Positions 1 to 19,618 of a stretch of 19,618 bases of DNA are shown one piece after another. Where the stretch lies: positions 1-19,618 of the IMG/VR virus record IMGVR_UViG_2684622669_000001; one strand, given 5' to 3'. The notes under the pieces are model-generated. The model searched no databases. It saw only the letters and a list, made by a program, of their open reading frames with translations, and was not told where the DNA came from. Position numbers and translations under genes: made by a program. The stretch comes from a virus (taxonomy: Duplodnaviria > Heunggongvirae > Uroviricota > Caudoviricetes). The stretch's first letter is position 1, and every line of letters begins with the position of its first letter.

Positions 1-1
1 C

Positions 2-1819: not shown

Positions 1820-1821
1820 AC

Positions 1822-2262
1822 ATGGCGCGCCCAACAAAGTATCAAGAGGCGTATGCCGAACAGGCACGCAAACTGTGCTTGCTGGGCTACACCGATGCAG
1901 AGCTTGCTGATTTCTTCGAAGTTAGTGAGTCAACTATTAACAAGTGGAAGCTTGATTATCCTGAGTTTTCGGAGTCCATAAAAAAGGGTAAGGCCGTCGC
2001 TGATGCAGAAGTTAGTGACCGTCTTTATCAACGCGCTATGGGCTTCGTGGCTCCAGACATCGATATTCGTGTTATTGAAAACAGAATTGTCGAAACTCCG
2101 CTTGAGAAGTATTACCCGCCTGATACAACCGCCGCCATCTTCTGGCTTAAGAACCGACAGAAGGATAAATGGCGCGACAAGGTTGATCACGAGCTAACAG
2201 GCAAAGACGGCGGCGCAATCCAGATTGAAACATCACCGATGAGCACTCTATTCGGAAAATGA
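1822..2262 (+). CDS. Terminase small subunit (Sf6 gp1-like)
   Basis: 146 aa. The N-terminal HTH-like segment and the C-terminal ...GKDGGAIQIETSPMSTLFGK match the Sf6-type small terminase as I recall it. The stop overlaps the terL start (ATGA). Confidence 0.85.
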   Translation: MARPTKYQEAYAEQARKLCLLGYTDAELADFFEVSESTINKWKLDYPEFSESIKKGKAVADAEVSDRLYQRAMGFVAPDIDIRVIENRIVETPLEKYYPPDTTAAIFWLKNRQKDKWRDKVDHELTGKDGGAIQIETSPMSTLFGK

Positions 2263-3674: not shown

Positions 3675-3675
3675 T

Positions 3676-5874
3676 ATGGCAGAAAAAAAGATGACTGACT
3701 GGCATCGCAAGGTGCTGTGCAACTTTGATAATGCCTGGTCAGCAACGCAGGATATGCGTGAGCAGATTATTGAGGCTCAACGTTTCGTCCGGGTATCCGG
3801 CGCACAGTGGGAAGGCAGCACAAACGCTGGTTACTCATTTGATGAAGGCAGGTTTGAGCATTACCCGCGCTTTGAACTGAATAAGATTGCCCGTGAATGT
3901 GATCGCATCATTGGCGAGTATCGACAGAATCGCATCAGCGTTAAATTCAGGCCGAAGGATGACAAGGCATCGGAAGCGTTAGCCGAAAAGATGAACGGCA
4001 AATTCCGCGCTGACTATCAGGAAACATCAGGTGGCGAAGCGTGTGATAACGCATTTGATGATGCTGTAACGGGCGGATTCGGTTGTTTCCGCATGTGTGC
4101 CGATTACGAAGATGAAATGGACCCAAGTAACGAGCAGCGACGCATCAGCATTCTTCCTGTTTACGACCCGGCGACATGCGTCTTCTTCGATCAGGACAGC
4201 AAACAATATGACCGCTCTGATGCTATGTGGGCTATGGAAATGTTCTCCATGACGCCTAAAGCGTTCGAGGCTGAATACCCTGATTCCATTGCGGCAAGCC
4301 TTTCTCGGGATGACACTGGTACTCAGTATGACTGGTCAACGCCTGACGCCATCTATGTTGGACGTTACTACGAAGTTCGCATAGAGAAGGTGAAGCTCAC
4401 GGCGTGGCGCAACCCTGTTAGCGGAGAAACGGCAATCTATGATGAAGAGCAAATCAAAGATATTGTCGACGAGCTGACCGATGGTGCATTCGAACTGATT
4501 GGCGAGAGAACGGTGAAGAAACGCCGAGTTTATTGCGGTCTTCTTTCTGGCGCTGAATGGCTGGAAGAACCGAAGCGTATTCCTGGCGAACATATTCCTC
4601 TCATCCCGGTATATGGGCGTCGCTCATTTGTTGATAATCAGGAGCGAATCGAAGGCCACGCAGCAAAAGCGATGGATGCACAGCGTCTTGAGAACCTGAT
4701 GGTTTCCATGATTGCAGATAACGCTACTCAGGCTGGCGGTGATGGCATTCCTATCGTGGATGTTGATTTCATTCCCGGCCCATTAATGAATCACTGGGCA
4801 GAGAGGAATAAGAAAAGACCTGCAGTTCTTCCTATGACCAGCAAGAAGGACAAAAACGGAACAGTCATTTCAGAAGCTCAGGTTGCTGGCTGGACACCTC
4901 CGACACAAATGCCGCCAGCTCTTGCCGGGCTATTGCAGTACACCGGAACGGCTATTCAGCAAATTACAGGTGCGTCGCAGCTTGAGAACATGCCGAGCAA
5001 CGTCGCTACTGATACCGTTGATAGCATTTTTAACCGGATGGACACGCAGTCCTATATCTACATGGACAACATGGCTAAATCTATGCGTCGCGCTGGCGTT
5101 GTGTGGCTTTCTATGGCGCGTGAAGTCTATGGCAGCGATACGCCGATGCGTATCGTTAATGAGGACGGCAGCGATGACGTGGCGCTGATGACTGGTGAAG
5201 TGGTTGACCGTCAGACAGGGCAGGTTATCGCGCTTAACGACCTTTCGCAGGGTAACTATGAAGTGACTGTCGATGTCGGTCAGTCGTTCGCTACTCGCCG
5301 TGATGCAACGGTTAAGTCGTTACTTTCCATGCTGGCACTTATCCCACCAGGAACGCCGAAGCACGACCTTGTATCGTCGATGATTCTCGACAATATGGAC
5401 GGCGAAGGGATGGACGACCTGAAAGAATACAACCGCAATCAGTTGCTTCTGTCTGGAGTTATCAAGCCGAGAACACCAGAAGAACAGCAGATGGTTGAGC
5501 AGGCGAAACAACAACAGGCCAGTCAGCCAGATCCGGCTATGGTTGCAGCGCAAGGTCAGCTTCTTGCAGGTCAGGCTGAATTGCAGAAAGCGCAGAACGA
5601 GCAGGCAGCCATTCAGGTTAAAGCATTCCAGGCACAGACTGATGCTCAGGTTGCAGCGGCAAACGTTGTGAAAATCCTCGCATCTGCCGATAGCCAGCAG
5701 AAATCTGATATCCGCGAGGCTCTGAAACTGCTCGGACAGTTCCAGCAACAGCAAGGAGACAATGCCCGTGCTGATGCAGAGCTTGTCCTGAAAAGTCAGG
5801 CACAGGGTCATGCGCAGCGCATGGACATCAGCAGCATCCTGCAAAAATCAACTCAGCAACAACCACAGCAGTAA
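3676..5874 (+). CDS. Portal protein (P22 gp1-like) with C-terminal Gln/Ala-rich helical extension
   Basis: 732 aa (P22 portal is about 725 aa). Starts 1 nt after the terL stop. The last ~130 residues are Q/A-rich, as in the P22 portal barrel. Confidence 0.9.
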   Translation: MAEKKMTDWHRKVLCNFDNAWSATQDMREQIIEAQRFVRVSGAQWEGSTNAGYSFDEGRFEHYPRFELNKIARECDRIIGEYRQNRISVKFRPKDDKASEALAEKMNGKFRADYQETSGGEACDNAFDDAVTGGFGCFRMCADYEDEMDPSNEQRRISILPVYDPATCVFFDQDSKQYDRSDAMWAMEMFSMTPKAFEAEYPDSIAASLSRDDTGTQYDWSTPDAIYVGRYYEVRIEKVKLTAWRNPVSGETAIYDEEQIKDIVDELTDGAFELIGERTVKKRRVYCGLLSGAEWLEEPKRIPGEHIPLIPVYGRRSFVDNQERIEGHAAKAMDAQRLENLMVSMIADNATQAGGDGIPIVDVDFIPGPLMNHWAERNKKRPAVLPMTSKKDKNGTVISEAQVAGWTPPTQMPPALAGLLQYTGTAIQQITGASQLENMPSNVATDTVDSIFNRMDTQSYIYMDNMAKSMRRAGVVWLSMAREVYGSDTPMRIVNEDGSDDVALMTGEVVDRQTGQVIALNDLSQGNYEVTVDVGQSFATRRDATVKSLLSMLALIPPGTPKHDLVSSMILDNMDGEGMDDLKEYNRNQLLLSGVIKPRTPEEQQMVEQAKQQQASQPDPAMVAAQGQLLAGQAELQKAQNEQAAIQVKAFQAQTDAQVAAANVVKILASADSQQKSDIREALKLLGQFQQQQGDNARADAELVLKSQAQGHAQRMDISSILQKSTQQQPQQ

Positions 5875-5964
5875 TTAACCCATAACGTGCAATGGCTGTC
5901 TTTATGAGGCCAGGCACCCTATTGCCTTCCGATGGGCTGAACATCGAGTAAACAGGGGTAACAA

Positions 5965-6858
5965 ATGGACCAGATGGCAGAAAACACACCAGAAGTTGAA
6001 ATCGAAACCGACGCGTCAGAGCAGATTCCTGATGATGTCGAACTGGCTGAAGAAGTCGAAACAGAAGATGGCAGTGAGTCCTCCGGCAATGATGCAGAGG
6101 AAGCTACTGAAACTGATGACGACGAATCAGAACAGGAATTCTACTTTGGTGACGAAAAGCTGGATTCGCCAACCAGCGAAGATAGCGCAGAGCATGGACT
6201 GGTAAAACACCTGCGCAAGACGATTAAAGAGAAAGACCGCGAGCTGAAAGAGCTGATGCGTCAGTCTCAGAAACCCGTCGAGCAGCAGCCGGTAATCACT
6301 CAACCACCGAGAATGCCAAAACTGGACGATGAGGACATCGGTTTCGATGAAGAAATCTACCAGCAACGCATGGCTAAGTGGGCAGAGGATAACGGCAAGT
6401 ACCAGCAACAGGAGATGGCTCGCAAGCAGAAGGAGCAGGAGCTTCAGGCTGCCTATCAAGAGCGATTATCCAAATATCAGCAACGTGTTAAGGCCCTCAA
6501 AGTTCCTGGCTATCAGGAAGCTGAGCAGGCCGTACTCGAGGAAATCCCCATCGAGACACAAAACGCGATCCTGTTTGAGTCAGAGAAGCCGGAAATCGTT
6601 GTTCTGGCGCTCGGTCGCAACGCTGAACTGCGCAAGCAACTGGCAGAAGCTACCAACCCCGTAGCAATTGGTCGTCTGCTGGAACGTATCGAATCGAAGG
6701 CCAGAATCATGCCAAAAGCAAAAACCACGGCAGCCACAACCCCGACAGTTAAGGGGAGCAACGGCGCAGTAATCAATAACCTCGACAAACTGAAAGCCAA
6801 GGCGCTGGAAACTGGTGACTGGACGCCGTATTTCGCCGCTAAAAAGGCAAAAAAATAA
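5965..6858 (+). CDS. Scaffolding protein
   Basis: 297 aa (P22 gp8 is about 303 aa). Sits between portal and coat. Highly acidic N-terminus and Q/K/E-rich helical remainder. SD cagggg. Confidence 0.75.
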   Translation: MDQMAENTPEVEIETDASEQIPDDVELAEEVETEDGSESSGNDAEEATETDDDESEQEFYFGDEKLDSPTSEDSAEHGLVKHLRKTIKEKDRELKELMRQSQKPVEQQPVITQPPRMPKLDDEDIGFDEEIYQQRMAKWAEDNGKYQQQEMARKQKEQELQAAYQERLSKYQQRVKALKVPGYQEAEQAVLEEIPIETQNAILFESEKPEIVVLALGRNAELRKQLAEATNPVAIGRLLERIESKARIMPKAKTTAATTPTVKGSNGAVINNLDKLKAKALETGDWTPYFAAKKAKK

Positions 6859-6876
6859 CCTATCGGAGCATTAAGC

Positions 6877-8130
6877 ATGGCTAACCAATTAGCAAAAGAC
6901 CTTGAAATCATGTTCGAAAACTACGTTGAAGGCTTTGAGGCCGCCTGCGTAGTTTCCCGTAACGCTAAAAAATTCCGTCCCGGTGATACAGCAATGCAGC
7001 GAGCAGGTGATGTTCTGTATCGTCAGCAGCATTACCACATGAATATTGAGGAAGGCCTCGACCTCAGCAGCAAAACGCCAACAGCACTGGTTCAGCGCCT
7101 TGTTCCTTCTGTGTTCAAGGAGCCGAAAAACATTCTGTACACTCTGGATGCGCGTGAAATGCGTGACCCGGAACATAAAACTGAAGCTGGTCGCGCCGCA
7201 GGTATGCGCCTTGCTGCACAGATTGACTCTGACCTGATTTCCATGGTCACGCAGCGTGCTACTAACGTGATCACAATGTCTGACTCAACCACAGGTACAC
7301 AGGGCCGTGATTTGTGGAACTGTGCGGCAGGTATTGATGCCACCATGACGGCGATTGGTGTACCTCAGGGTATCAACCGTCGCTCTTTCTGGAACCCCTT
7401 CAACTACAAAGACCTTGCTGGCGAGCTTGGTCACCGTGCCTACGCTCAGGGCGCAACCCTGACAGCATACGAAAAAGCGCAGATCCCTCCGGTTGCTTCC
7501 TTTGATAGCTACAAGACCGATATTTCTGGTCGATTACCGAAAGGAAGCGCTGAATCCTTGACAGTATCAGGCCAACCTGAACACAAGGTTGAAGCGAAAG
7601 ATTTAAATGGTATGCCAGTTGATAACCGACAGGGGACTATTACGGTATCTGCATCTGGCTTGCAGGTTGGTGATGCGTTCACCATTGCCGGTGTGAATTC
7701 CGTACACCAGATCACAAAAGATACCACCGGGCAACCGCAGGTATTCCGTGTTCTGGCTGTTAGCGGAACTACCGTAACAATCTCTCCAAAGATTCTCCCT
7801 GTTGAAAATGCCGATGTTGCGAGTCGTCCATATGCAAACGTCGATGCCAAACCGGCAGCATCAGCAGCAATCACCATTCTCAACAAGAACGCAGCACCTG
7901 CTAACCTGTTCTGGGCTGATGGTTCTGTTGAGCTGATGTACGGCAAACTGGCGTTCCCGACTGGTCAGGGTCCACAGGTAATGACAGCAACCACCGAGCA
8001 GGGCGCTACGCTGATCATGTCTTACGCCTTCGACCACATCAAAGGTGTAACCACTGCGCGTTTCACCACCCTGTACGGTTGCTCTGTACTTGTTCCTGAA
8101 TATACGGGCATCGTTATTGCCGGGCAGTAA
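6877..8130 (+). CDS. Major capsid (coat) protein, P22 gp5-like
   Basis: 417 aa. Segments NAKKFRPGDTAMQRAGDVLY and ILNKNAAPANLFWADGSVELMYGKLAFP parallel P22 coat (KAKKYTPPAASMQRSS..., [26 protein letters not shown]) from memory. SD ggag. Confidence 0.9.
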   Translation: MANQLAKDLEIMFENYVEGFEAACVVSRNAKKFRPGDTAMQRAGDVLYRQQHYHMNIEEGLDLSSKTPTALVQRLVPSVFKEPKNILYTLDAREMRDPEHKTEAGRAAGMRLAAQIDSDLISMVTQRATNVITMSDSTTGTQGRDLWNCAAGIDATMTAIGVPQGINRRSFWNPFNYKDLAGELGHRAYAQGATLTAYEKAQIPPVASFDSYKTDISGRLPKGSAESLTVSGQPEHKVEAKDLNGMPVDNRQGTITVSASGLQVGDAFTIAGVNSVHQITKDTTGQPQVFRVLAVSGTTVTISPKILPVENADVASRPYANVDAKPAASAAITILNKNAAPANLFWADGSVELMYGKLAFPTGQGPQVMTATTEQGATLIMSYAFDHIKGVTTARFTTLYGCSVLVPEYTGIVIAGQ

Positions 8131-8136
8131 TTTTGG

Positions 8137-8157
8137 TGGGGCTTCGGCCCCATTTTT
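8137..8157 (+). terminator. Intrinsic terminator/attenuator after the coat gene
   Basis: tggggc (8137-8142) / ttcg loop / gcccca (8147-8152), followed by ttttt (8153-8157). Begins 7 nt after the coat stop codon. Confidence 0.6.
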
Positions 8158-8171
8158 ATTGGGAGAAGATA

Positions 8172-8360
8172 ATGGCACGAACAATGCTCTATAAGCCGGG
8201 CAACATGATCACCTGTGGTCAGTTTGCTGTCGATTACATCATTGTTGATGACGAAGAAGTTAAATCTCACCTGAAAAAAGGTTGGGTAAAAACTCCTGAA
8301 GAAACCGCAACGAAGCAAAAAGTGGCTAAGGCGGAAGAAGATGGCGAAAACGAAGGGTGA
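8172..8360 (+). CDS. Hypothetical small protein between coat and gp4-like genes
   Basis: The track ORF 8133-8360 is trimmed to the ATG at 8172, which has SD gggagaag upstream and lies after the terminator hairpin. 62 aa; its end overlaps the next gene. Confidence 0.5.
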   Translation: MARTMLYKPGNMITCGQFAVDYIIVDDEEVKSHLKKGWVKTPEETATKQKVAKAEEDGENEG

Positions 8361-8802
8361 TCTCGTTCTAAAGGCTTTACGAAAAGCCGGGCTGTATTCC
8401 AATGCCACGTTGACAGATGCCGACCCTCAGGCAATTGAAGATGCCATTAATGACCTCGAAGACATGATGGCAGCATGGCAGGCGAAAGGTATCGAGCTTG
8501 GATATCAGTTTGCTAATACAGAAAACGGCATCATGCCGTTACCTGACGATGATTCAGGTATCCCTGCATGGGCAAATGATGGCGTCGCTTTGAAACTCGC
8601 TGTGCAAGTGTGCATGGATAACGTCATTCAGCCGTCAGACGCTCTCCTTACCGCTGCTGACAGTGCATATCAAACAATCTGTATCGCTTTAACCAAAATA
8701 CCACCACTTGAGCGGCGAAATGACATGCCTCGCGGTAGTGGTAACAAAAGCGCGTTTACGTGGAATCGGTTTTACATCGAGAAAGATGATCCGAGTACGT
8801 GA
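8341..8802 (+). CDS. Head-completion / tail accessory protein (P22 gp4-like)
   Basis: 153 aa. KTKGDLVLKALRK, ATLTDADPQ, DLEDMMAAW and MPRGSGN parallel P22 gp4 motifs from memory. Synteny supports the call. Confidence 0.85.
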   Translation: MAKTKGDLVLKALRKAGLYSNATLTDADPQAIEDAINDLEDMMAAWQAKGIELGYQFANTENGIMPLPDDDSGIPAWANDGVALKLAVQVCMDNVIQPSDALLTAADSAYQTICIALTKIPPLERRNDMPRGSGNKSAFTWNRFYIEKDDPST

Positions 8803-8811
8803 GGTGAATAA

Positions 8812-10230
8812 ATGCCGATTCAGCAACTTCCGCTTATGAAAGGTGTCGGCAAAGACTTCCGAAACGCCGACTATATCGACTATCTGCCAGTGAATATGCT
8901 GGCTACACCCAAAGAAATCCTCAACAGCAGCGGATATCTTCGCTCATTCCCGGGCATTGCCAAACGTTCTGATGTGAATGGTGTATCGCGCGGCGTCGAG
9001 TACAACATGGCGCAGAATGCTGTTTATCGCGTGTGTGGTGGCAAGCTCTACAAAGGGGAAAGTGAAGTCGGTGACGTCGCCGGAAGTGATCGTGTATCAA
9101 TGGCGCATGGTCGGACATCACAGGCGATAGGTGTTAATGGTCAACTGGTCGAATACCGCTATGATGGCACGGTTAAAACCGTCTCAAACTGGCCTACTGA
9201 CAGCGGATTCACACAGTACGAGTTAGGTTCAGTTCGCGACATTACGCGCTTACGTGGGCGTTATGCGTGGTCAAAAGACGGCACTGATTCATGGTTTATC
9301 ACTGACCTTGAAGACGAATCGCATCCTGACCGCTACAGCGCACAATATCGCGCAGAATCGCAGCCGGACGGCATCATCGGTATCGGGACATGGCGAGACT
9401 TCATCGTCTGCTTTGGTTCATCGACTATTGAATATTTTTCCCTGACAGGTGCAACCACCGTTGGTGCCGCTTTGTATGTCGCACAGCCATCGCTGATGGT
9501 GCAGAAAGGCATTGCCGGAACTTACTGCAAAACGCCGTTTGCTGATTCGTATGCGTTCATCAGCAATCCGGCAACAGGTGCGCCGTCTGTGTATATCATC
9601 GGCTCTGGTCAGGTATCACCAATCGCCAGCGCGAGCGTTGAGAAAATCCTCCGCTCCTACACTGCTGATGAACTGGCTGATGGCGTGATGGAGTCTCTGC
9701 GCTTTGATGCTCATGAGTTGCTGATTATCCACCTTCCTCGCCATGTTCTCGTGTACGACGCATCTTCAAGCGCCAATGGTCCGCAATGGTGTGTACTGAA
9801 AACAGGCTTGTATGACGATGTGTACCGCGCTATCGACTTCATTTACGAAGGAAATCAGATAACGTGCGGCGATAAGCTGGAATCGGTTATCGGCAAATTG
9901 CAGTTCGATATCAGCAGCCAGTACGACAAGCAACAGGAACACCTGTTGTTTACTCCGTTGTTCAAAGCGGATAACGCAAGAGTGTTCGACCTTGAGGTTG
10001 AATCTTCAACTGGCGTTGCGCAGTACGCTGACCGCCTGTTCCTCTCTGCAACCACTGACGGAATCAATTACGGACGTGAGCAGATGATTGAACAGAATGA
10101 ACCGTTCGTTTACGACAAACGTGTTTTGTGGAAGCGAGTAGGGCGCATCAGGAAAAATGTCGGTTTCAAATTGCGCGTTATCACGAAGTCACCTGTAACT
10201 CTGTCTGGCGCTCAGATAAGGATTGAGTAA
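8812..10230 (+). CDS. Tail accessory / hub protein (P22 gp10-like)
   Basis: 472 aa, the same length as P22 gp10. The N-terminus [49 protein letters not shown] is near-identical to my recollection of gp10. SD gaggtga. Confidence 0.9.
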
Positions 10231-10931
10231 TGGCGGATTCGAATCTCAATACACCTGTTATTGTTCAGGCGACGCGGCTCGATACATCAGTCCTTCCACG
10301 CAATATCTTCTCGCAGTCATATCTGCTGTACGTTATTGCACAGGGTGCTGATGTTGGTAACGTGGCTAACAAAGCCAACGAGGCAGGACAGGGCGCTTAT
10401 GATGCACAAGTCAGGAACGATGAGCAGGATGTGATTCTCGATGACCACGATGCAAGAATCACCGCAAACACAAAAGCGATAAATCTCCTTGAGGTCAGGT
10501 TAACAACCGCCGAAGGGAAGATAGTCGTACTGCGTAGCGATGTTGATTACTTGCTGGATGAGGTTATCGATATTCAGGCGCATCTTGTCACTGTTGACAA
10601 AAGACTGGAGGGCGTAGAAAGCGATGTATCTGACATTAAGAGTGATTACGTATCGAAAACCGTAACCGAATCGCAGTCTCTTGCGTCACCACTGAATGTA
10701 AAAACATCATATTCAGTTGATGGAATTCAGGTTGTTGGAGCAAGAAATACCGGATGGACTGCAGCCACAGGTACGCCACTTCTTGGCTCATTCAACGCTA
10801 ACCAGTCATACACTGTCGGCACTACGTACACACAATCCGAAGTCGCAGCTCTCGCTACAGGTTTGCAGCAGGCGCGGCAGCGTATTCTGGCGCTTGAAAC
10901 GGCACTTAGATTACATGGGCTGATTGACTGA
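10230..10931 (+). CDS. Tail needle (P22 gp26-like), trimeric coiled-coil plug
   Basis: 233 aa, the same length as P22 gp26. The N-terminus [39 protein letters not shown] and the C-terminal ...[19 protein letters not shown]... match gp26 from memory. TAATG overlap with the upstream gene. Confidence 0.9.
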
Positions 10932-11386
10932 TGATTACATTCAAACCAACGCGAAACATCGACCTGATAGAAGCAGTCGGAAATCACCCTGACATTATCG
11001 CCGGGAGCAACAACGGTGATGGATACGACTACAAACCTGATTGCCGTTACTTTGAGGTGAACGTGCACGGGCAGTTCGGCGGCATTGTTTACTATCAGGA
11101 GATTCAGCCGCTGACATTCGATTGCCACGCCATGTACCTGCCAGAGGTTCGCGGCTTCAGCAAGGAAATCGGGCTGGCGTTCTGGCGATACATTCTGATT
11201 AACACCACCGTTCAGTGCGTCACATCGTTCGCTGCACGCAAATTCCGCCACGGTCAGATGTATTGCGCAATGATTGGCCTTAATCGTGTAGGAACCATCA
11301 AGAAATACTTCAAAGGCGTGGATGACGTGACGTTTTACAGCGCCACACGCGAAGAACTAATCGACTTCCTGAATCACGGGAGATAG
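10931..11386 (+). CDS. gp14-like virion/ejection-associated protein (by synteny)
   Basis: 151 aa. Occupies the gene-14 position of the P22 order, with a TGATG overlap to the needle gene. Assignment is by position, not by sequence recollection. Confidence 0.6.
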   Translation: MITFKPTRNIDLIEAVGNHPDIIAGSNNGDGYDYKPDCRYFEVNVHGQFGGIVYYQEIQPLTFDCHAMYLPEVRGFSKEIGLAFWRYILINTTVQCVTSFAARKFRHGQMYCAMIGLNRVGTIKKYFKGVDDVTFYSATREELIDFLNHGR

Positions 11387-11388
11387 CC

Positions 11389-12081
11389 ATGTTATATGCA
11401 TTTACGCTGGGCAGAAAACTGCGCGGCGAGGAACCTTATTGCCCTGAAAAAGGCGGGAAAGGTGGCAGTTCTGATAAAAGCGCAAAGTATGCCGCAGAAG
11501 CTCAGAAGTATGCCGCAGACCTGCAAAATAAGCAGTTCAACACCATCATGAACAACCTGAAGCCGTTTACTCCTCTGGCTGATAAGTATCTCGGCAGCCT
11601 CGAGAACTTATCGTCTCTGGAAGGGCAAGGTCAGGCACTTAACCAGTATTACAACTCTCAGCAGTACAAAGATCTTGCTGGTCAGGCTCGCTATCAGAGT
11701 CTGGCGGCAGCGGAAGCAACAGGTGGATTGGGTTCCACCGCAACCAGTAATCAGTTAGCAACAATCGCACCAACGCTTGGTCAGCAATGGCTATCTGGAC
11801 AAATGAACAATTACAACAACCTGGCAAATATCGGTCTTGGCGCTCTTCAGGGGCAGGCAAACGCCGGGCAAACATATGCCAACAACATGAGTCAGATTTC
11901 ACAGCAAAGCGCGGCGCTGGCTGCGGCAAACGCCAACCGACCGTCAGCATTGCAGCAGGGGGTTAGTGGTGCTGCATCCGGTGCGCTTTTGGGTGGTGGC
12001 ATAGCCAGTGCTCTCGAGCTATCAACTCCGTGGGGTGCTGGTATCGGTGCTGGTCTTGGTCTGCTTGGCTCGTTGTTTTAA
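11389..12081 (+). CDS. Ejection (internal virion) protein, P22 gp7-like
   Basis: 230 aa (P22 gp7 is about 229 aa). Q/N/A/G-rich low-complexity protein with a Gly-rich hydrophobic C-terminus (GGGIASALELSTPWGAGIGAGLGLLGSLF). SD gggaga. Confidence 0.7.
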   Translation: MLYAFTLGRKLRGEEPYCPEKGGKGGSSDKSAKYAAEAQKYAADLQNKQFNTIMNNLKPFTPLADKYLGSLENLSSLEGQGQALNQYYNSQQYKDLAGQARYQSLAAAEATGGLGSTATSNQLATIAPTLGQQWLSGQMNNYNNLANIGLGALQGQANAGQTYANNMSQISQQSAALAAANANRPSALQQGVSGAASGALLGGGIASALELSTPWGAGIGAGLGLLGSLF

Positions 12082-12091
12082 GGGGTAATCA

Positions 12092-13441
12092 ATGGCTACG
12101 TGGCAACAGGGTATTAATTCTGGTGGTTTTCTGGCTGGCATCGGTACGCAAAATGAGAATGCGCCAAAGGCAAGCGACATTAACGCAACGCTTGGTCTGA
12201 TCCGCGAAAACAATGAGTTGGCTCGCTCAGGTGCAAATAACGTTGGTCTGACCGCGTTACGTGGTCTGGCTGGAGTTGCTGATATTTATAAGCAGGAACA
12301 GCAACAGAAAGCGATTAATGCGTTCAATAAGGTTCATGCTGATGCATGGGCTTCTGGTGATCCATCGGGACTATTTAAGTTTGCCAAGGAAAATCCAGCG
12401 TTTGTTGCGCAGGCACAACAGGCGTTTTCCGGTCTTAATGAGCAGCAACGCAACGATATGGGCGATTTAGCCATGAGAGCTAACGTCGCTCTTTCTCAGG
12501 GACCGGAAGCCTACAGTAAATTCATTACTGACAACAAGGACAGGTTAAATCGCGTTGGCGCTAATGCTGACTGGATGATTCAGACAGGTATCCAGAATCC
12601 AGAGCAGCTATCACACATGCTGACTACTATGTCTCTCGGTGCGCTTGGACCAGAAAAGGCGTTTGCTGTTCAGGATAAGATGGTTGGTCGCCAGCAGGAG
12701 CAGCAAAGAATTAAAGAAACCATTCGCAATAATGACATGACGAATGCGAGGGCTATTAGGGGTCAGGATCTTTCCTATAAGGCTCAAATGGCAAGACTGA
12801 ATCACGACAAGTATGTGTTTAAGCAGTCACAGGCGGCCCTTGAAAGAGCAGGACAACTTCAGGATATGGATGTTTTGTCTCTTAACTCACAGATAGCAGC
12901 GACGGGAATTGATCCGCTAACCGGTAAAGCTGCAACGTCAGCCAGAATGTCTCAGGCTAAGAGATGGCTTGATGGCAACAATAATTACAACAATGCGTTA
13001 ATTACTGGTGAGCGAGGGATAGAGAAAATTGATTCTTTGCTTGGTAAGAAGGAGCTTGAAGGTATTGGTCGCTTCGAAGGAAGAAATATAGATGGCTTCA
13101 CAAGTGCTGAAGGGCTTGCAAACCGTAATGCGATAGAAGAATTAAAGTCGGGGGCGTTTGTCCAGAACGTGCAGACTATGCGAGGTATGGGTAGCCTCTC
13201 CAATGCTGAAGGCCAAAAACTGGAAAACCTGATCGCGAAACTCGATATAACACAGCCTGAAGAGGTCGTCAGAAAACAGTTATCTGAAATCCGATCGCAA
13301 TATTCTGTATTTCAAAAGGTTGCAGCAAGGGAGGCTGAATCAATGGGATATAGTTCATCAGGTTATGACACATATGTTAGTGAGCGAAAATCAGGAAGCG
13401 ACAGCAATAAGTCCGGTTTCTCGTCTTTATGGGGTGATTAA
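12092..13441 (+). CDS. Ejection protein, P22 gp20-like
   Basis: 449 aa (P22 gp20 is about 471 aa). Position in the operon; SD aagggg. Confidence 0.7.
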
Positions 13442-15609
13442 TGGCTAAAGCATGGAAAGATGTTATCGCTTCTCCACAGTATCAGGCGTTAACTGAAGAA
13501 CAGAAAGCACAGGCTCAAGCGCAATATTTTGATGAGGTTGTTGCCCCTAAGGCTGGTGACAAATGGGCTGAAGCAAGAGATCAGTTTTATGCAGCATACC
13601 CTCCGCCTCAGCAGCAGAAAGAAGAACCATCATTGATGCAACAAGCTGGCGATTGGCTCACTGGTGGTCAAAGTGCAGGGCAAATTGCAGAACAGGCTGG
13701 TCGTGGTCTGGTAAACATACCATTTGACGTATTGCAGGGTGGCGCAAGTCTGATTAATGCAATCAGCCAGGGGCTTGGTGGCCCCAAGGTTTTGGATGAT
13801 GTTTATCGCCCTGTCGATCGACCGACAGACCCTTGGGCGCAAGCCGGTGAAACATTTGGGGGGTATCTCCTGCCAATTGGCACAGCGGCAAAAGCTGCTG
13901 GAGCGACAGCAAAGCTCGCAGGAGACATCGGTTCCGCAGGAAACATGATTGCAGGTTCTCTTGCTGATGCTGCAAATCAGGAGGGCGATTTTGCACAAAA
14001 TGCTGCCATTAATGGTGGTATCAATATTGGTGCTCAGGGGATACTTTCTGGGGCTGGAAGGATCTTAACCTCTAAATCACCTCAAGTTCTTGGTGGCGGG
14101 GCAATAAATTCCGCTGCTGATGTTTCGAAAATGGCAAAGTCTGGTACAGGAAGAGAGATTATTGCCAGACAGTCAGCTAATGTGTCAGACGAAATAGCAA
14201 AAGCAGCAGATACTGCTGGAATAGATATCAACGCATTAACTCCTGGCATGAGATCAGGTAGTCGTGGTCTTGCTCAGGCGGAGGGGATTCTGGCGTCAAA
14301 GCCCGGAATTACACAGGATGCACACACCAAAGCATTCAGTGAAATAGAGTCGAAATTTAACTCAGCATTGGATGAGTTTGGGGCTGAAGCAGGAACTGCA
14401 TCAGAAAAAAGTGCAGCCATAAAACAAAGGGTTTTGGCAAGTATTGATAAAATGAAAAATTCAGAAAAGGCCGCATGGGATAGCGTCCGCTCCACGATTC
14501 CTGACGCAAAGGCCAGAATGTCAAACCTGAACGCTACAATTCAGGGTGATATTTTGGCTGGCATGCCGCTAACTCCTGAGATGAAACAATTCGCATCTGC
14601 TTATGCTAAAACTGGTAAAAAAGGAATCACGTTTGATGCCATGAAGGCATGGCGAAGTAAACTTGCTGACGCAGAGCAGAAGTATATAAGGTCTGGTGAG
14701 GCAAATACGGCAAGGCGCATGGCTGAGCTTCGTGATGCAGCAACGGAAGATATGCGCATAATGGCTCAAAATGGCGGTTTTCTTGATGACTGGCAAAAAG
14801 CTAATGATCTGTCAAAGGCAAGATTTACAGCACAAGAACAGGCTGAAGCAGCGTTTGGTAGAGACCTTGCAACTGATCAGTTGGTAACTAATGGATCTAA
14901 GGCGTTACAGGGTTCAGCAAAAAGTGGAACAGGTCAGTTCCATAAAATAATAAGCGCCCTACCTGAGTCGGAACGCGCGCCAGCAATTGCATCAATATTA
15001 CAAGATGCAATGTCGCAAGGGGTACGCGGAGGTAAGTCTGAAGAGGCTGGAATTAAGCATATCGCGACTATTCTTACCCCACAAAACGTGAAGGCAATTA
15101 GTCGATATTCTCCAGAACTTGGCAGGATTACAAGTTCATACGGAGAACTTGCACGAGCAGCAACAAAGCCACTTCGATATGTTGAACAGACAGGGCGATC
15201 TATGCCAGCCATTAGCACTCTTGAGAATGGCCTTCATCCAGTTTTAGAGAGCGCATTGTCTGGCGCTTTTAGAACTACTGGCACTATCGCAGGGTTCTCT
15301 GGAGGAGGCGTTATTGGAGCAATAGCGGGTGGCGCTGCAGGTGGGGCAATTGATGCAATGGCAAAAGGAGCGATAGCGAAATTATCCGCAACTAGAAGCG
15401 GTCGTTACGCTATTGAAAAGGCTGTTCAAGAGGCAACAAAGGCAGTTAAGGTTGGGGCAAGTGATGGCGCATTAGCGGCGGCGGAACGCAGATTTATGGC
15501 AAATAAGGCCGCCGTAAAAGCAATACGCGAGGCACTAGGAAACGAAGAGTTCCAGCGTTTAGCAAGAGCTGGAATTGTGGCATCGCTAAGCGGAATGGCA
15601 CAGGAGTAA
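13441..15609 (+). CDS. Ejection protein, P22 gp16-like (longer than P22 gp16)
   Basis: 722 aa, last gene of the virion operon, TAATG overlap with the upstream gene. Gly/Ala-rich hydrophobic segment near the C-terminus ([30 protein letters not shown]). Confidence 0.7.
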
Positions 15610-15939
15610 TTAGTCATCCATGGATGGATTGAGCTTATCTCGTGTTGATGTGGCAATTTTCCCAACATTTTTCAACCAAGATTTTAAGAAGGATATGTCG
15701 TCCTTAATATCATGAATATCCTCATTCTTTATACGATCAACCTTATCCTCTAAGCTCTCTATAGAACGCTCAATGCTAGACAGAGAGATTTTTAAGTCCC
15801 CTTGCTCACGTTCCAGTGAGGATTTGAGAGCACAATATTCGTTTTCTAGAATTCCTATTTTTTTTGTTAGAGAGTGCATTCGATACTCATACACCAAACC
15901 AGAAACGACTAATGCAGCCAACAGAAACCATTCAAGCAC
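15610..15939 (-). CDS. Hypothetical membrane-anchored coiled-coil protein (accessory gene)
   Basis: The track ORF 15610-16155(-) is trimmed to the in-frame GTG at 15937-15939, which has a perfect SD aaggagg 5 nt upstream. Predicted product has an N-terminal hydrophobic helix (LEWFLLAALVVSGLVYEY) then a heptad-like charged region. Stop abuts the gp16-like stop. AT-rich. Confidence 0.5.
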   Translation of the reverse strand: MLEWFLLAALVVSGLVYEYRMHSLTKKIGILENEYCALKSSLEREQGDLKISLSSIERSIESLEDKVDRIKNEDIHDIKDDISFLKSWLKNVGKIATSTRDKLNPSMDD

Positions 15940-15969
15940 ACCAACCTCCTTAGTTTTGAACAGGATACC

Positions 15970-16335
15970 ATGAAAAAAGTTAACATTGGAAACGTACCAA
16001 AGATGCTCGTTCCGCTCTTTGAGAGCGGTACAATTGTGTTTTGTAGAGACTTTCCAGAATGGCAACGCCTGCATCAAAAACTTGGCGTTGACGTGCATGA
16101 CTCGGACGCCAACGGAGCGTCTCATACAATGAGTAGCGAGAATGGTGTTTTGCATGTGATAGGCGTGTTCAATGGCAAACTATCTACTATTGCCCATGAG
16201 TGCGCTCACATGGCATTCGATATCTGCTCAAGGGTAGGTGTTGATGTTGAACTAGGAAGAGCCAACGAGACTTACTGCTACTTAATGAGCAGGCTTGTTG
16301 AGTTCTGCGAGCGACATATCAAAAAGCCGGAGTGA
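15970..16335 (+). CDS. Hypothetical HExxH-motif protein (putative minimal zincin-like metallopeptidase)
   Basis: 121 aa, SD agga 4 nt upstream of ATG. Contains IAHECAHMAFD (HExxH) with a downstream Glu in NETYCY, the gluzincin spacing. Stop codon sits in the loop of a terminator hairpin. Confidence 0.6.
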   Translation: MKKVNIGNVPKMLVPLFESGTIVFCRDFPEWQRLHQKLGVDVHDSDANGASHTMSSENGVLHVIGVFNGKLSTIAHECAHMAFDICSRVGVDVELGRANETYCYLMSRLVEFCERHIKKPE

Positions 16336-16343
16336 CCCGGCTT
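16324..16343. terminator. Bidirectional terminator between convergent accessory genes
   Basis: aagccgg (16324-16330) / agtgac / ccggctt (16337-16343). Flanked by aaaaa upstream and a T-rich stretch downstream, so both strands get a U-tract. Confidence 0.5.
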
Positions 16344-16348
16344 GATTA

Positions 16349-16528
16349 TTACTTTTTGCTGTCTGGAGTTCGCTTATCCAATACCCAGCCATGACCTGGC
16401 TTTGTTGTTGGTGGAAGCCTTTCGTTGTCCTTGACGGTTGCAAAATTGTCTTTCTTACCGCCGCGTGGGCCAACTTCTTGGTATATTCCGCCGTTTTTTC
16501 CTGTGTTTTCACCTGGTTTTTTCGCCAT
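16349..16528 (-). CDS. YjzC-like small protein (tentative family call)
   Basis: The track ORF 16349-16543(-) is trimmed to the second ATG (16526-16528), which has SD gagg 6 nt upstream. The 59-aa product MAKKPGENTGKNGGIYQEVGPRGG...ERLPPTTKPGHGWVL fits the YjzC pattern as recalled. Confidence 0.45.
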   Translation of the reverse strand: MAKKPGENTGKNGGIYQEVGPRGGKKDNFATVKDNERLPPTTKPGHGWVLDKRTPDSKK

Positions 16529-16610
16529 GATATACCTCAACATATACCCGTTATTGGGCGATTAAATATTGATCTCATTTTATAAGTAGTCAATATGGTC
16601 CAAAAAAGGC

Positions 16611-16645
16611 AAAAATTAACCCACCTTCAGGTGGGTTTTTTGTTT
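16611..16645. terminator. Bidirectional intrinsic terminator overlapping the 3' end of the Mnt-like gene
   Basis: aacccacc (16618-16625) / ttca / ggtgggtt (16630-16637), then tttttgttt on + and aattttt on the minus side. The Mnt-like stop codon (16627-16629) is in the loop. Confidence 0.6.
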
Positions 16646-16947
16646 AGCAGTTCTCTCAACTTTTCGTTCTGCTCTCTGAACTTTTCCTGTATTTCTTTTT
16701 GCATGGCGATAACCTGGGCTTGAAGTTGAACTAGCGCATCAACATTTAGCGGAACCGAGACGCTGTTGATTTTATCTGCTATTTCCCCGAGTGTATTTTC
16801 TGCATTCAAGGCATCTTCCAGTATCTGAACAATCTCTGAGTTCATTGATCTGCCGTTACGTTTGGCTCGTTCAGCTATAGCATCCCGCATTCCTGCAGGA
16901 AGCCTGATATTGAACCTATCCATTTCATGACTAGGGAACTTGCTCAT
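16627..16947 (-). CDS. Mnt/Arc-family ribbon-helix-helix repressor (Mnt-like paralogue 1) with extended C-terminal coiled coil
   Basis: 106 aa. FNIRLPAGMRDAIAERAKRNGRSMNSEIVQILEDAL matches the Arc/Mnt RHH motif (P22 Mnt: FNFRMPMEVREKLKFRAEANGRSMNSELLQIVQDAL, from memory). SD gagg. Divergent from the Arc-like gene. Confidence 0.8.
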   Translation of the reverse strand: MSKFPSHEMDRFNIRLPAGMRDAIAERAKRNGRSMNSEIVQILEDALNAENTLGEIADKINSVSVPLNVDALVQLQAQVIAMQKEIQEKFREQNEKLRELLNKKPT

Positions 16948-16989
16948 ATGACCTCAACGTAAAGATGTTCGCTAAACAATAGCACCAAC

Positions 16990-17029
16990 TTGACATCAAA
17001 ATAAATGGTGTTAAATTGGTTCTAGAACC
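16990..17029 (+). promoter_or_regulatory. Candidate rightward promoter (-35 TTGACA, -10 TAAATT) with overlapping palindromic operator
   Basis: TTGACA at 16990-16995, a 16-nt spacer, then TAAATT at 17012-17017. Perfect 12-bp palindrome GGTTCTAGAACC at 17018-17029, inside a 21-bp near-palindrome AATTGGTTCTAGAACCAAGTT (17014-17034). Confidence 0.45.
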
Positions 17030-17058
17030 AAGTTGGCATCATTGTGGGAGGATTACTT

Positions 17059-17232
17059 ATGAAAGATGTGCTTTACACAGGTCGTAAAAGTCAAAGTTTC
17101 CAGCTTCGTTTGCCAGCGCGAATGAAGGAGGAGATTAGACGTGTTGCTGAAATGGATGGAATTTCTATCAACTCTGCGATTGTGCAGCGACTGGCTAAAA
17201 GCCTGAGAGAGGAAAGAGCTAATGCCCAGTAA
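17059..17232 (+). CDS. Arc-like ribbon-helix-helix repressor
   Basis: The track ORF is trimmed to the ATG at 17059, with SD gggagg 7 nt upstream. 57 aa. FQLRLPARMKEEIRRVAEMDGISINSAIVQRL parallels P22 Arc (FNLRWPREVLDLVRKVAEENGRSVNSEIYQRV, from memory). Confidence 0.75.
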   Translation: MKDVLYTGRKSQSFQLRLPARMKEEIRRVAEMDGISINSAIVQRLAKSLREERANAQ

Positions 17233-17312
17233 AAATAGTGAAGCCCGGCAGTGCGTGAACACAAACCGGGCCTCTATGTCAGTAACCGTATGCAAGGAAA
17301 CTAACATGAATA
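17233..17312 (-). ncRNA. Candidate sar-like antisense RNA opposite the antirepressor ribosome-binding site (hypothetical)
   Basis: Minus-strand -10-like hexamers just inside the ant-like start (TACAAT = + 17312-17317; TATAAT = + 17328-17333). Minus-strand GC hairpin 17243-17272 followed by a U-rich stretch in the arc-ant spacer. Analogy to P22 sar RNA. Confidence 0.25.
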
Positions 17313-17932
17313 TTGTAGCAAAATCAGATTATAACTTCCACGGAGTTGAATTGGTGCCCACCCGTGATATGCATGGTGTTTGGTTTACATCATCTAATAT
17401 TGCATCTGCACTTAAATACGCAAATAGTCGTGCAGTAACAATGATTTATAACAAGTATAGCGATGAGTTTAGCGCCGGAATGACTCAGGTACTCGAAGTG
17501 AGTACCTCAGGAAATTATCGCAAAAAAGTGCGTGTTTTCTCACTACGCGGTGCCCACCTAATCGCGATGTTTGCTCGCACTCAGGTAGCCAAAGAGTTCC
17601 GCCGCTGGGTGCTGGATATTTTGGATCGGCAGGCAGAATGCTCACCGATTGCAAAACAGTTTACTGACGAAGAACTGGTTAATCTCTGCTACTTACAATT
17701 GTGGATGGAGAAGAGTCAACAAATGTGCAAACACATCTACCCAGGAATGAAGCAAATTGGTTCTGAGCTTTCAGGAAGGATTTACGATATTGCATATGAG
17801 ACTCGCTACATGTCAGAAGAAACCAAGAAATCACTTCTTCGTGAAATGAAGAATCTTGATACCAACAATTTTGTCGTAAAGAACGCTCAGCCAATGCTGG
17901 CAAAACTGCGCGGCGAGGAATGGATTCATTGA
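17306..17932 (+). CDS. Antirepressor-like protein (Bro-N / P22 antirepressor N-terminal-like domain)
   Basis: The track ORF 17222-17932 is trimmed to the ATG at 17306, with SD aagga 6 nt upstream. 208 aa. ...FSLRGAHLIAMFARTQVAKEFRRWVLDIL... is typical of Bro-N/antirepressor N-domains. Position after arc mirrors P22 arc-ant. Confidence 0.7.
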   Translation: MNIVAKSDYNFHGVELVPTRDMHGVWFTSSNIASALKYANSRAVTMIYNKYSDEFSAGMTQVLEVSTSGNYRKKVRVFSLRGAHLIAMFARTQVAKEFRRWVLDILDRQAECSPIAKQFTDEELVNLCYLQLWMEKSQQMCKHIYPGMKQIGSELSGRIYDIAYETRYMSEETKKSLLREMKNLDTNNFVVKNAQPMLAKLRGEEWIH

Positions 17933-17950
17933 TTGGTGCGCCGGACTGCG

Positions 17951-18026
17951 CAAAAAGAAAACCGCCAGTGTGCTGCTGGCGGCCTATGTCACACACTTAC
18001 TACCACATAAGGAATGCCTAATGACT
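17951..18026 (-). ncRNA. Second candidate antisense RNA with its own minus-strand terminator (hypothetical)
   Basis: Stem ccgccag (17962-17968) / ctggcgg (17976-17982). On the minus strand it is followed directly by GTTTTCTTTTTG (rc of 17951-17961); the + strand has no T-tract. Minus-strand promoter-like GTGACA-17 nt-TACATT inside the first codons of the 18021 gene. Confidence 0.25.
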
Positions 18027-18746
18027 TTTAAGAATGTAGCAAACATCGGATCCGTTGTCACGGATAAAACCATTGACAGCCAAAGTCTTCTGATGATGGT
18101 TAATGAAGCTCGCAAGTTATGTGGAGAGCCATCAGTACGTAACAACAAATTCATCGAGAAAATTGAGGATGAATTGGAAGGCGAGACCTACACAAAAAGT
18201 GTAGGTCGGAAAAACGGGGCTGACATTGATGTTATCTCCATGACTATCAAGCAGGCGCTTCGTGTTGCTGCTCGCGAATCTAAAGCAGTTCGCCGAACAC
18301 TTGTAGACAAACTTGAAAGTATGCAGGAAGCGCACATTAAAAGCGGTAAATCAGCGAGTGGACTTGTTGAGTATCGTCAAGCGCGAACATTGAAAATGAC
18401 GGTTGAAGCTGTTACCAATCTGTTCGATCTGATGCCAAATCTTGCGCCGGAGGCAAAGCAGACAGCGGCAGCAAGTATAATCAACCCGCTCGTTGGTTTT
18501 AATGCAATACCTCTTCCGGCAATAGAAGAGCATTACTACTCAGCAGGGGAGGTTGCAGAGCAGCTTGGAGTAACGGCCAACAAGATTGGTCGCATTGCTA
18601 ACGCAAACAACCTCAAAACTGAGCAGTACGGGAAGTTCTTCCTGGATAAATCTGCGCATTCCAGCAAACAGGTGGAAGCGTTCCGCTACAATGAGGAAGG
18701 TGTTAAAGCACTACAACACCTGATTCATGGGAGTAATGTTGCATAA
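18021..18746 (+). CDS. Second antirepressor-like / phage regulatory protein (Rha/ORF6N-like N-terminus, KilAC-like C-terminus; tentative)
   Basis: The track ORF 17970-18746 is trimmed to the ATG at 18021, with SD aaggaa 6 nt upstream. 241 aa. The N-terminal region (TIDSQSLLMMVNEARKLCG...) is Rha/ORF6N-like and the C-terminal region (YYSAGEVAEQLGVTANKIGRIANANNL...) is KilAC-like. Domain calls are from memory. Confidence 0.55.
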   Translation: MTFKNVANIGSVVTDKTIDSQSLLMMVNEARKLCGEPSVRNNKFIEKIEDELEGETYTKSVGRKNGADIDVISMTIKQALRVAARESKAVRRTLVDKLESMQEAHIKSGKSASGLVEYRQARTLKMTVEAVTNLFDLMPNLAPEAKQTAAASIINPLVGFNAIPLPAIEEHYYSAGEVAEQLGVTANKIGRIANANNLKTEQYGKFFLDKSAHSSKQVEAFRYNEEGVKALQHLIHGSNVA

Positions 18747-18967
18747 TGGCAAAGAAAAAATATGGCATTATGCCGCCAAGAATCAAAGGAAGAGCCAGGG
18801 TAAAAGGCGATGCTGGAAGGTATCACATTCTTGGAGTTCTGTGGCATGAGAGAGCTTTAATTTTAAGTAGACCTCATGGGTACATTGAAAAGGTATCTAT
18901 AGATAGAGTAGAGATTCTTCCCCTTACACCTGAAGAAGAAGAAACGTACGGACTTTTTGATAACTAA
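18746..18967 (+). CDS. Hypothetical small basic protein, translationally coupled to the upstream gene
   Basis: 73 aa. Start ATG overlaps the upstream stop (TAATG). Followed by a strong terminator. Confidence 0.45.
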   Translation: MAKKKYGIMPPRIKGRARVKGDAGRYHILGVLWHERALILSRPHGYIEKVSIDRVEILPLTPEEEETYGLFDN

Positions 18968-18973
18968 CCAGCT

Positions 18974-19004
18974 AAACCCGCTTAATCGCGGGTTTTTTCT
19001 TTTC
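18974..19004 (+). terminator. Intrinsic terminator ending the rightward accessory operon
   Basis: aaacccgc (18974-18981) / ttaatc / gcgggttt (18988-18995), followed by ttt and cttttc. The minus-strand Mnt-like stop codon (18982-18984) is in the loop. Confidence 0.6.
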
Positions 19005-19239
19005 TAAGGATATCAGCCGCAACTTCTTTTACTCGCTCCGAGATTAATGAGGCCAACCTCTCTTCTTCATCACGATACCCGCTTACAGGTGATGGTTTGG
19101 AGAGTGATTCTTCCATCGTAGCCACAATTTCGGAATTGATAGACCTGTTATTCATTTTTGCACGCTGCTTAATCTTAGCGTGCAACTCGTGCGTAAGCCT
19201 CAAGTGGAACTGCGCCTCATCGTATTTGCTGTACATCAT
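18982..19239 (-). CDS. Mnt-like ribbon-helix-helix repressor (paralogue 2, closest to P22 Mnt)
   Basis: The track ORF 18982-19320(-) is trimmed to ATGATG at 19234-19239, with SD gagg 5 nt upstream. 85 aa. QFHLRLTHELHAKIKQRAKMNNRSINSEIV...SKPSPVSGYRDEEERLA parallels P22 Mnt (...NGRSMNSELL...SKPSPVTGYRNDAERLA, from memory). Confidence 0.8.
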   Translation of the reverse strand: MMYSKYDEAQFHLRLTHELHAKIKQRAKMNNRSINSEIVATMEESLSKPSPVSGYRDEEERLASLISERVKEVAADILRKEKTRD

Positions 19240-19371
19240 CAATGCCTCACCAAATGGGTGGAATGGCATCGTAAAACCTACTGTACAAATCAACAATCGT
19301 ACCATTTCGGTATGCAACAAACATCAACCGTAGCCATGCTGCGGCGATTCCTTGTATCTGGAGCAAATTAA

Positions 19372-19530
19372 ATGACAGACATTACAGCCAATGTGATCGT
19401 ATCGATGCCTTCGCAACTCTTCACTATGGCGCGTTCTTTTAAAGCTGTAGCTAATGGCAAAATTTATATCGGTAAAATTGATACTGACCCAGTAAATCCA
19501 GAAAACCAGATTCAGGTTTATGTAGAGAAC
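19372..19530 (+). pseudogene. Tailspike gene, N-terminal head-binding domain only (interrupted by IS2)
   Basis: [53 protein letters not shown] matches the conserved P22/Sf6/HK620 tailspike N-terminus. After codon 53 the reading frame enters an IS end and no longer resembles tailspike. Confidence 0.85.
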
Positions 19531-19618
19531 TGGATTTGCCCCTATATTTCCAGACACCTGTTATCACTTAACCCATTACTGGCCTGCTGCCGCAGATATT
19601 CCCGTGGCGAGCGATAAC
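19531..19618 (-). mobile_element. IS2 (IS3 family) terminal inverted repeat and 3' end of the transposase gene, partial (continues beyond window)
   Basis: TGGATTTGCCCCTATATTTCCAGACACCTGTTATCACTTAACCC matches the IS2 terminal inverted repeat as recalled. The minus-strand translation of 19545-19618 gives ...[24 protein letters not shown], typical of an IS3-family OrfB C-terminus. Confidence 0.8.
19542..19618 (-). CDS. IS2 transposase OrfB C-terminal fragment (partial, 5' part outside window)
   Basis: Minus-strand frame ends with stop TAG (+ 19542-19544) after ...[26 protein letters not shown]. This ending is characteristic of IS3-family transposases. Confidence 0.7.

Follow-up and report, generated by a model that had tools for sequence, protein, structure and literature searches.

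The analyzed window, a stretch of 19,618 nucleotides covering positions 1 to 19,618 of the IMG/VR virus record IMGVR_UViG_2684622669_000001, belongs to a P22-like (Lederbergvirus-type) phage or prophage of E. coli. Its left part carries genes for a Rha-like regulator, small and large terminase, portal, scaffold, coat, connector and ejection proteins, and the ejection-protein block closes with an HK620-type gene 16 of 722 aa. Gene 16 is followed by hkcB on the minus strand, hkcC on the plus strand, and a small gene convergent with hkcC. To the right of this cassette lie a complete immI region (Mnt, Arc, Ant) and then a second anti-repressor. The coding sequence of hkcC, which encodes a zincin-like protein of PHROG 1365, occupies 15970..16335 (+), with an ATG start and 121 codons plus the stop in the ORF listing. 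A ribosome-binding site, AGGA, is read at 15962..15965 (+), 4 nt 5' of the ATG. The position, start codon and length of this ORF in the initial annotation, together with the two peptides quoted there, IAHECAHMAFD and NETYCY, agree exactly with the ORF listing.

The divergent left neighbour hkcB (15610..15939, -; 109 aa; phrog_5962, named after the HK620 annotation) stands in place of P22 sieA and lies outside the conserved cassette. Its mechanical ORF is longer, 181 aa at 15610-16155 (-), and overlaps the first 186 nt of hkcC; phrog_5962 matches residues 73-181 only. The start of hkcB is the GTG at 15939, and the product has a hydrophobic N-terminus followed by a coiled-coil-like region. In the P22-pbi record the sieA promoter is annotated at 2501-2531, corresponding to window 15970-16000 and lying inside the first 31 nt of the hkcC ORF, so that the start of hkcC would also serve as promoter for the divergent gene. 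The homology between P22 and HK620 starts at window 15931, just inside hkcB.

On the right side, the immI genes of the window are found at 16627-16947 (-), 17044-17232 (+), 17222-17932 (+) and 17970-18746 (+). The window Mnt has 106 aa (an Arc-like RHH domain plus a longer C-terminal part) versus 83 aa in P22, and the window Ant has 236 aa (Bro-N plus P22_AR_C) versus 300 aa in P22. The second anti-repressor-like gene (258 aa, phrog_1726) directly follows Ant. Between mnt and the promoter of the small convergent gene, orf59a, lies a GC-rich hairpin with a perfect 8-bp stem (16618-16637), AACCCACC-TTCA-GGTGGGTT; it is flanked by T-runs on either side and would insulate orf59a from mnt transcription. 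This hairpin is annotated as tMNT in HK620, whereas the P22 annotation puts t-mnt after orf59a.

Comparison of the region 15500-16643 with phage HK620 gave 97% DNA identity, and the ORF is annotated there as hkcC, "unknown" (HK620 HkcC accession AAK28904). With the same region as query, the DNA matches to P22-type phages start at query positions 432-438 and stop at 1144. They delimit a mosaic module at 15931..16643 that comprises hkcC, a hairpin, and the partner gene with its promoter, and is common to P22 and some 70 relatives among the Salmonella P22-type phages with about 97% DNA identity. HkcC shows 98% aa identity to a 121-aa ORF in Salmonella phage P22, which is unannotated in the P22 records AF527608, BK000583 and NC_002371; only the sieA promoter and the mnt terminator are given there. 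HK620 hkcC and the P22 ORF are the same gene in the same slot, between gene 16 with hkcB or sieA on one side and orf59a with mnt on the other. Unlike in HK620, from which the immI region has been lost, the cassette in the window adjoins this region in complete form (mnt, arc, ant).

The 713-bp module is present in 113 of 5426 complete E. coli genomes, and in all E. coli matches listed the NCBI pipeline labels its hkcC "hypothetical protein". A search with a 7-sequence alignment matched 80 near-identical loci in IMG/VR. In the literature, hkcC and orf59a are both of the unknown-function genes in the P22 "ant moron" (PMC2629481, PMC4837284). The published statements on hkcC, phrog_1365 and orf59a found in our literature search give "unknown function" only, and the literature on SprT-like anti-defence and phage zinc proteases adds no function for hkcC beyond that. 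Thus hkcC is a known and named gene, and its family, PHROG 1365, is catalogued but unannotated, without a Pfam or NCBIfam model.

The partner gene (orf59a in P22, "HkcD" in HK620) is located at 16349..16528 (-) and encodes 59 aa plus the stop; the mechanical ORF reaches 16543. A GC-rich hairpin at 16324..16343 includes the hkcC stop codon and the greater part of the 13 nt that separate the two genes. The HK620 annotation labels it a bidirectional terminator and the P22 annotation t-mnt, and an equivalent hairpin occurs in all ten cassette loci examined. The partner has its own sigma-70-like promoter, TTGACT-17-AATATT, at 16565..16593 (-), followed by a conserved GCCCAATA element. Promoter and element are retained in 8/10 cassette loci on unrelated phage backbones, and the promoter is absent from the stand-alone copies of the YjzC-like gene. 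In full, the element 3' of the promoter reads AATATTTAATC-GCCCAATA with a repeated CAATA, which could be an operator or a 5'-UTR element.

The partner protein matches phrog_3202 at 1.3e-31. Its match to the YjzC model PF14168 (E=0.0017, 19.1 bits) falls under the cut-off of 25, while more distant homologues carry PF14168 and close ones are named "YjzC family protein" in UniRef. Judged by these similarities, the partner probably belongs to, or borders on, the YjzC family. The AlphaFold2 model of the partner is a folded three-stranded beta-domain (pLDDT 87). A convergent partner lies 5-16 nt from hkcC, with a hairpin between the two, in 11 of the 13 intact loci of the hkcC clade (43-100% identity). 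The cassette is kept at HkcC identities of only 43-63% in Rosenbergiella, Klebsiella, Xenorhabdus, Proteus, a Pasteurellaceae genome and metagenomic prophages, on podovirus as well as siphovirus backbones. The partner is more conserved than HkcC (75-82% versus 55-63%). As far as found, the hkcC/orf59a cassette is undescribed in the literature. Neither the name hkcC nor this pairing of genes figured in the initial annotation.

The partner is missing beside the zincin genes of the Orf129 clade, of mEp-type and N4-like phages and of other members, and many other mobile elements have a YjzC-like gene and no zincin. The dependence between hkcC and its partner runs one way. In HK620 (AF335538, 2850-3044, -) the partner gene has an in-frame TAG at the codon of the invariant Glu (..GGIYQ*VGPRGG..) with hkcC intact, which reflects either a pseudogene in this phage or an error in the sequence record.

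The HExxH motif of HkcC is encoded at 16195..16209 (+) by the codons H76-E77-C78-A79-H80, and a second motif, N99-E100-T-Y-C-Y104, at 16264..16281 (+), with N99-E100 at 16264-16269. H76 and H80 are proposed as zinc ligands, E77 as the catalytic base and E100 as the third ligand, on the grounds of sequence conservation and the structure model. Y104 is a conserved Tyr one helical turn beyond E100. The initial annotation had placed the third ligand about 22 residues downstream; the Glu that it pointed to is the right one, and the count is corrected here, since E100 lies 20 residues past H80 with 19 residues intervening. In thermolysin the corresponding residues are H142, H146 and N165-E166, with the spacing HExxH-x19-NE, which is exactly the spacing in HkcC.

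Taken alone, the HExxH of a single sequence says little: two were seen in the window against 1.2 expected from its 39,232 six-frame codons, one of them in a non-coding frame, and the motif in HkcC by itself is within chance expectation. It is the invariance across the family that places the motif far above chance. An alignment of 137 sequences, 25-45% identical to HkcC, keeps H76 in every sequence and E77, H80, E100 and G49 in 136 each, with Y104 in 128/137 and N99 in 100/137. The motif residues are retained in epsilon34 gp70 / ST64T Orf-129 (39% identity) and in E. coli phage mEp044, and are also intact in the distant homologue of the Pseudomonas N4-like phage phCDa (30% identity). The caveat in the initial annotation that the motif could be coincidental is effectively ruled out by this family-wide invariance at H76, E77, H80 and E100.

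HkcC matches phrog_1365 at E=1.8e-39, with residues 1-121 aligned to profile positions 3-120 of 127, and PHROG 1365 is also matched by all 131 aligned relatives. An exhaustive profile search retrieved 515 cluster representatives at E<=0.001, nearly all of them single-domain proteins of 110-130 aa. The family is found across phages of Enterobacterales, Pasteurellaceae, Pseudomonas and Ralstonia, and its conservation is full-length. Some members have a long Lys/Ala/Glu-rich C-terminal tail (mEp044 3001-3582; P0066, P0073, P0136 and P0158), which ends in a conserved ..YVPRxxx[FY]KR[GW] in mEp044, P0066 and P0073. It may be a DNA-binding or targeting tail, and it is absent from HkcC.

The AlphaFold2 model of HkcC, built from a 20-sequence alignment, has a pLDDT of 88.7 and a pTM of 0.83. 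Its elements are, in order, strands 11-13 and 21-25, helix 28-37, a hairpin of strands 49-56 and 59-66, helix 71-88 and helix 100-116. The HExxH motif sits in helix 71-88, and E100 opens helix 100-116. A minimal zincin consists of a sheet with a backing helix, an active-site helix and a "glutamate helix", and the predicted order of secondary structure in HkcC is that of such a minimal zincin. The signature of gluzincins, a third-ligand Glu 18-30 residues past the second His on the next helix, is found in HkcC at the level of sequence and secondary structure. The model also bears out the earlier statement that the protein has no signal peptide, because an N-terminal hydrophobic segment is absent and residues 11-25 form core beta-strands.

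Searches of known structures and families point in the same direction with little strength. Foldseek against the PDB returned nothing at E<=0.001, and the match of top probability (0.44) was human SPRTN. Among the predicted viral structures in BFVD, 26 matches were obtained at E<=0.001, from many unrelated phages (Ralstonia, Erwinia, Achromobacter, Eggerthella, crAss-like). Most BFVD matches are unnamed; those with names (E from 6.5e-5 to 0.04) include "SprT-like", "Metalloprotease", "IrrE protein" and one "Putative nucleotidyltransferase". A PDB profile search with 131 sequences gave nine matches at E<=10, all marginal and all to zinc metallopeptidases, of which the best, myroilysin at E=0.01, spans the N-terminal strands through the HExxH. 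The same search with a small alignment returned only noise, and Pfam and NCBIfam scans of HkcC gave only spurious weak lantibiotic matches. The weak sequence and structure matches thus fall on metallopeptidases, and the similarity to solved structures is not significant.

We consider it fairly probable that HkcC is a catalytically competent, minimal cytoplasmic metallohydrolase of the zincin type, most likely a gluzincin-type zinc endopeptidase. The earlier description as a compact cytoplasmic gluzincin-like protein holds for the signature, which is now backed by its invariance, a confident model and weak metallopeptidase matches, and it is plausible for the fold and the metal site. We infer zinc binding and peptidase activity from these features as follows. 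H76 and H80, one turn apart on helix 71-88, and E100, with which the following helix opens, would jointly hold a zinc ion, and E77 would act as general base and activate the zinc-bound water. Y104 may help to stabilise the transition state or may position E100. The beta-hairpin 49-66, just before the active-site helix, could accommodate the substrate as an additional strand. What speaks most for catalysis over mere binding is that the catalytic Glu, E77, is so strictly retained.

On the evidence of sequence and model, the HkcC family would be a new, unclassified member family of the zincins, which carries the gluzincin signature and falls outside the SprT-like and M78 families. Like the gluzincins of clan MA(E) (thermolysin M4, M1 aminopeptidases), HkcC has the HExxH helix and then an Asn-preceded Glu on the next helix. 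However, it displays no detectable sequence similarity and no significant structural similarity to any solved member, and its family is phage-borne. The minigluzincins proabylysin and projannalysin are archaeal proteins of roughly 100 aa, and HkcC resembles them in its minimal size. The ImmA/IrrE anti-repressor proteases (M78) share with HkcC the HExxH and a downstream Glu, and they are likewise small, cytoplasmic, borne on mobile elements and near repressor genes; unlike them, members of the hkcC family lie far from any repressor in most phages. The M78 kinship that the initial annotation had proposed to look for did not appear: the Pfam listing for the 131 members, 25 families in all, does not include Peptidase_M78 (PF06114), and the structure matches to BFVD proteins named IrrE are marginal (E=0.035-0.042).

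Wherever it was examined in temperate phages, the zincin gene has the same direction as the late genes. In P22-type phages hkcC lies between gene 16 and mnt, on the path of late transcription to the tailspike gene. Five siphovirus prophages have an hkcC homologue with the tail-tube or chaperone genes on one side and the tape-measure gene on the other. The zincin gene of the Orf129 clade is located between the lysis cassette and the small terminase, and that of mEp044 after the lysozyme gene. The N4-like phages have theirs in a short divergent block beside the terminase genes. No conserved promoter was found upstream of hkcC in the cassette loci compared. Given its late-gene orientation and the lack of a conserved upstream promoter, the simplest inference is that hkcC is expressed late by read-through, and HkcC would be made in the cytoplasm alongside the late proteins. 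The gene is present or absent among P22-like phages (PMC2629481). Thus hkcC is an accessory gene of the moron type, probably made late in lytic growth by read-through.

The P22-like phages ST160, SE1Spa, Phi75, UAB_Phi20, ST-32 and SW-70 have two zincin paralogues. One is hkcC in the ant moron. The second is of the Orf129 type, about 38% identical to hkcC, with the lysis genes to one side of it and the terminase or dec gene to the other. Two paralogues in one phage suggest different specificities. The window has no Orf129-type paralogue upstream of its terminase.

The roles put forward in the initial annotation, namely cleavage of host or phage regulators, abortive infection and anti-defence, found no direct support. 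The defence models of PADLOC-DB returned 0 families for HkcC at E<=1. Superinfection exclusion of the SieA type was considered as a function of HkcC and rejected, because in P22 SieA alone suffices for exclusion (PMC10883804). Only a loose order can be given to the candidate substrates. First, as a rather speculative choice, comes the YjzC-like partner or a target common to both proteins, DNA-bound proteins come second with lower expectation, and the third is a host factor that HkcC would bind or cleave as an anti-host function.

In its own clade, the zincin gene usually forms a cassette with the gene of the convergent YjzC-family small beta-protein, which has its own promoter, and the conserved arrangement suggests that the two products may interact or may share a target. 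One reading of this arrangement takes HkcC and its partner as an antagonistic pair separated in time. The partner, made in the lysogen, would be either the substrate that late HkcC removes at the lytic switch or the inhibitor of leaky HkcC. The persistence of the convergent partner and shared hairpin in 11/13 intact loci agrees with it, as do the restriction of the conserved partner promoter to cassette loci, the higher conservation of the partner than of HkcC, and the prediction of a folded beta-domain for the partner. A precedent is the pair of a phage-derived metzincin and its TIMP-like inhibitor in Listeria, which shares with the present case a metalloprotease gene of phage origin kept with a small partner gene (PMC8235301). 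The metzincin of Listeria is secreted, and XRE regulators control it jointly with its inhibitor (PMC8235301), whereas the products of hkcC and orf59a would both be cytoplasmic and their genes are convergent. The interrupted partner gene beside an intact hkcC in HK620 argues against a strict antidote relationship. The zincin genes without a partner and the solitary YjzC-like genes also count against the pair, and tight physical linkage could by itself hold together two genes separated by 13 nt. We therefore regard the antagonistic pair as rather unlikely.

To the same tentative degree, hkcC and orf59a might constitute a hitherto undescribed kind of module, in which two genes are separated by phase. 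If this were true, the lysogen would make the YjzC-like protein from the partner's own promoter, and the protein would serve in conversion, exclusion or stress. Transcription of the zincin would be confined to the late operon, and the zincin would be a dedicated protease of the partner or would be restrained by it. A prophage function would then be erased, or a protease unleashed, exactly at lytic commitment, and the cassette would move as a unit between podovirus and siphovirus late operons.

A second alternative holds that HkcC is a DNA-dependent protease of the SprT/Wss1 type, acting on DNA-bound proteins and, for example, clearing host or defence proteins before packaging. HkcC has in common with SprT-like proteins, Wss1 and SPRTN a small zincin domain with weak local similarity around the active-site helix. 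The SprT-like model PF10263 was matched below threshold by 33/131 relatives (best E 1e-4), SPRTN was the top-probability Foldseek match in the PDB, and two BFVD neighbours are named SprT-like. The Lys/Arg-rich C-terminal tails of several members could bind DNA, and the late-operon position is often beside terminase genes. However, the two matches to PF10263 that were inspected (12.1 and 15.8 bits against a gathering threshold of 25.6) are confined to the HExxH helix at profile positions 63-96, and HkcC itself does not match the model at E<=1. Alignment of the HkcC family by hhalign gave no match to E. coli SprT, whether SprT entered as one sequence or as a profile of 19; the profile comparison gave a probability of 11% over an unrelated segment, which is a weak negative as the SprT profile is narrow (>=73% identity). 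The third zinc ligand of E. coli SprT is a His about 13 residues past the HExxH, in an HG.EW motif, and H95-G96 is invariant in the SprT alignment. By contrast, the third ligand proposed for HkcC is a Glu, and none of the 137 sequences has a conserved His at positions 81-99. A zinc-ribbon or DNA-binding module is absent from HkcC, which also has no basic tail. An SprT-like relationship, named as a check in the initial annotation, is thus not borne out, and we take a DNA-dependent protease of this type to be decidedly unlikely.

A third alternative leaves the zincin-like fold without proteolysis: HkcC would act by binding, as a stoichiometric inhibitor of a host or defence protein, or would hydrolyse a non-peptide substrate. 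No peptidase family membership was found in Pfam, in NCBIfam or by hhalign against SprT, and hkcC is an accessory gene in hypervariable moron positions, typical of anti-host factors (PMC2629481). Set against this, E77, which would be needless for mere metal binding or as a scaffold, is kept almost without exception, and we hold this alternative to be very unlikely. Finally, the idea that the motif is a coincidence in a non-functional ORF, which could draw on the roughly one HExxH per window expected by chance, on the P22 records AF527608, BK000583 and NC_002371, where only a promoter and a terminator are shown, and on the overlap of the 5' end with the annotated sieA promoter, has a negligible probability and is effectively refuted by the family data, in which 515 cluster representatives reach E<=0.001, conservation extends over the full length and the motif is invariant, together with a confident structure model and a ribosome-binding site.

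The preferred reading, a minimal gluzincin-type endopeptidase, bears on P22 and HK620, which are model phages, yet their hkcC is unnamed or missing in the reference annotations. It makes HkcC the type member of a large family, with over 500 clusters at 50% identity and a gluzincin site that is strictly conserved, and provides a hypothesis that can be tested by mutation. To our knowledge, few phage-encoded cytoplasmic proteases have defined targets. Possible targets of a late-expressed protease are host defences that respond to late proteins, factors of lysogeny, and proteins bound to DNA ahead of packaging. The pairing with the YjzC-like protein gives the first candidate partner for HkcC and a first functional handle on the uncharacterised YjzC family.

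The context of the family outside the lambdoid and P22-like phages is heterogeneous, as judged from two distant members. One of them (L093, 7001-7423, +) adjoins the methylase and specificity pair of a type I restriction-modification system at 4624-6940 (-), and the other, in the region L006 622-2637, is located downstream of ParB-like and AAA-ATPase genes.
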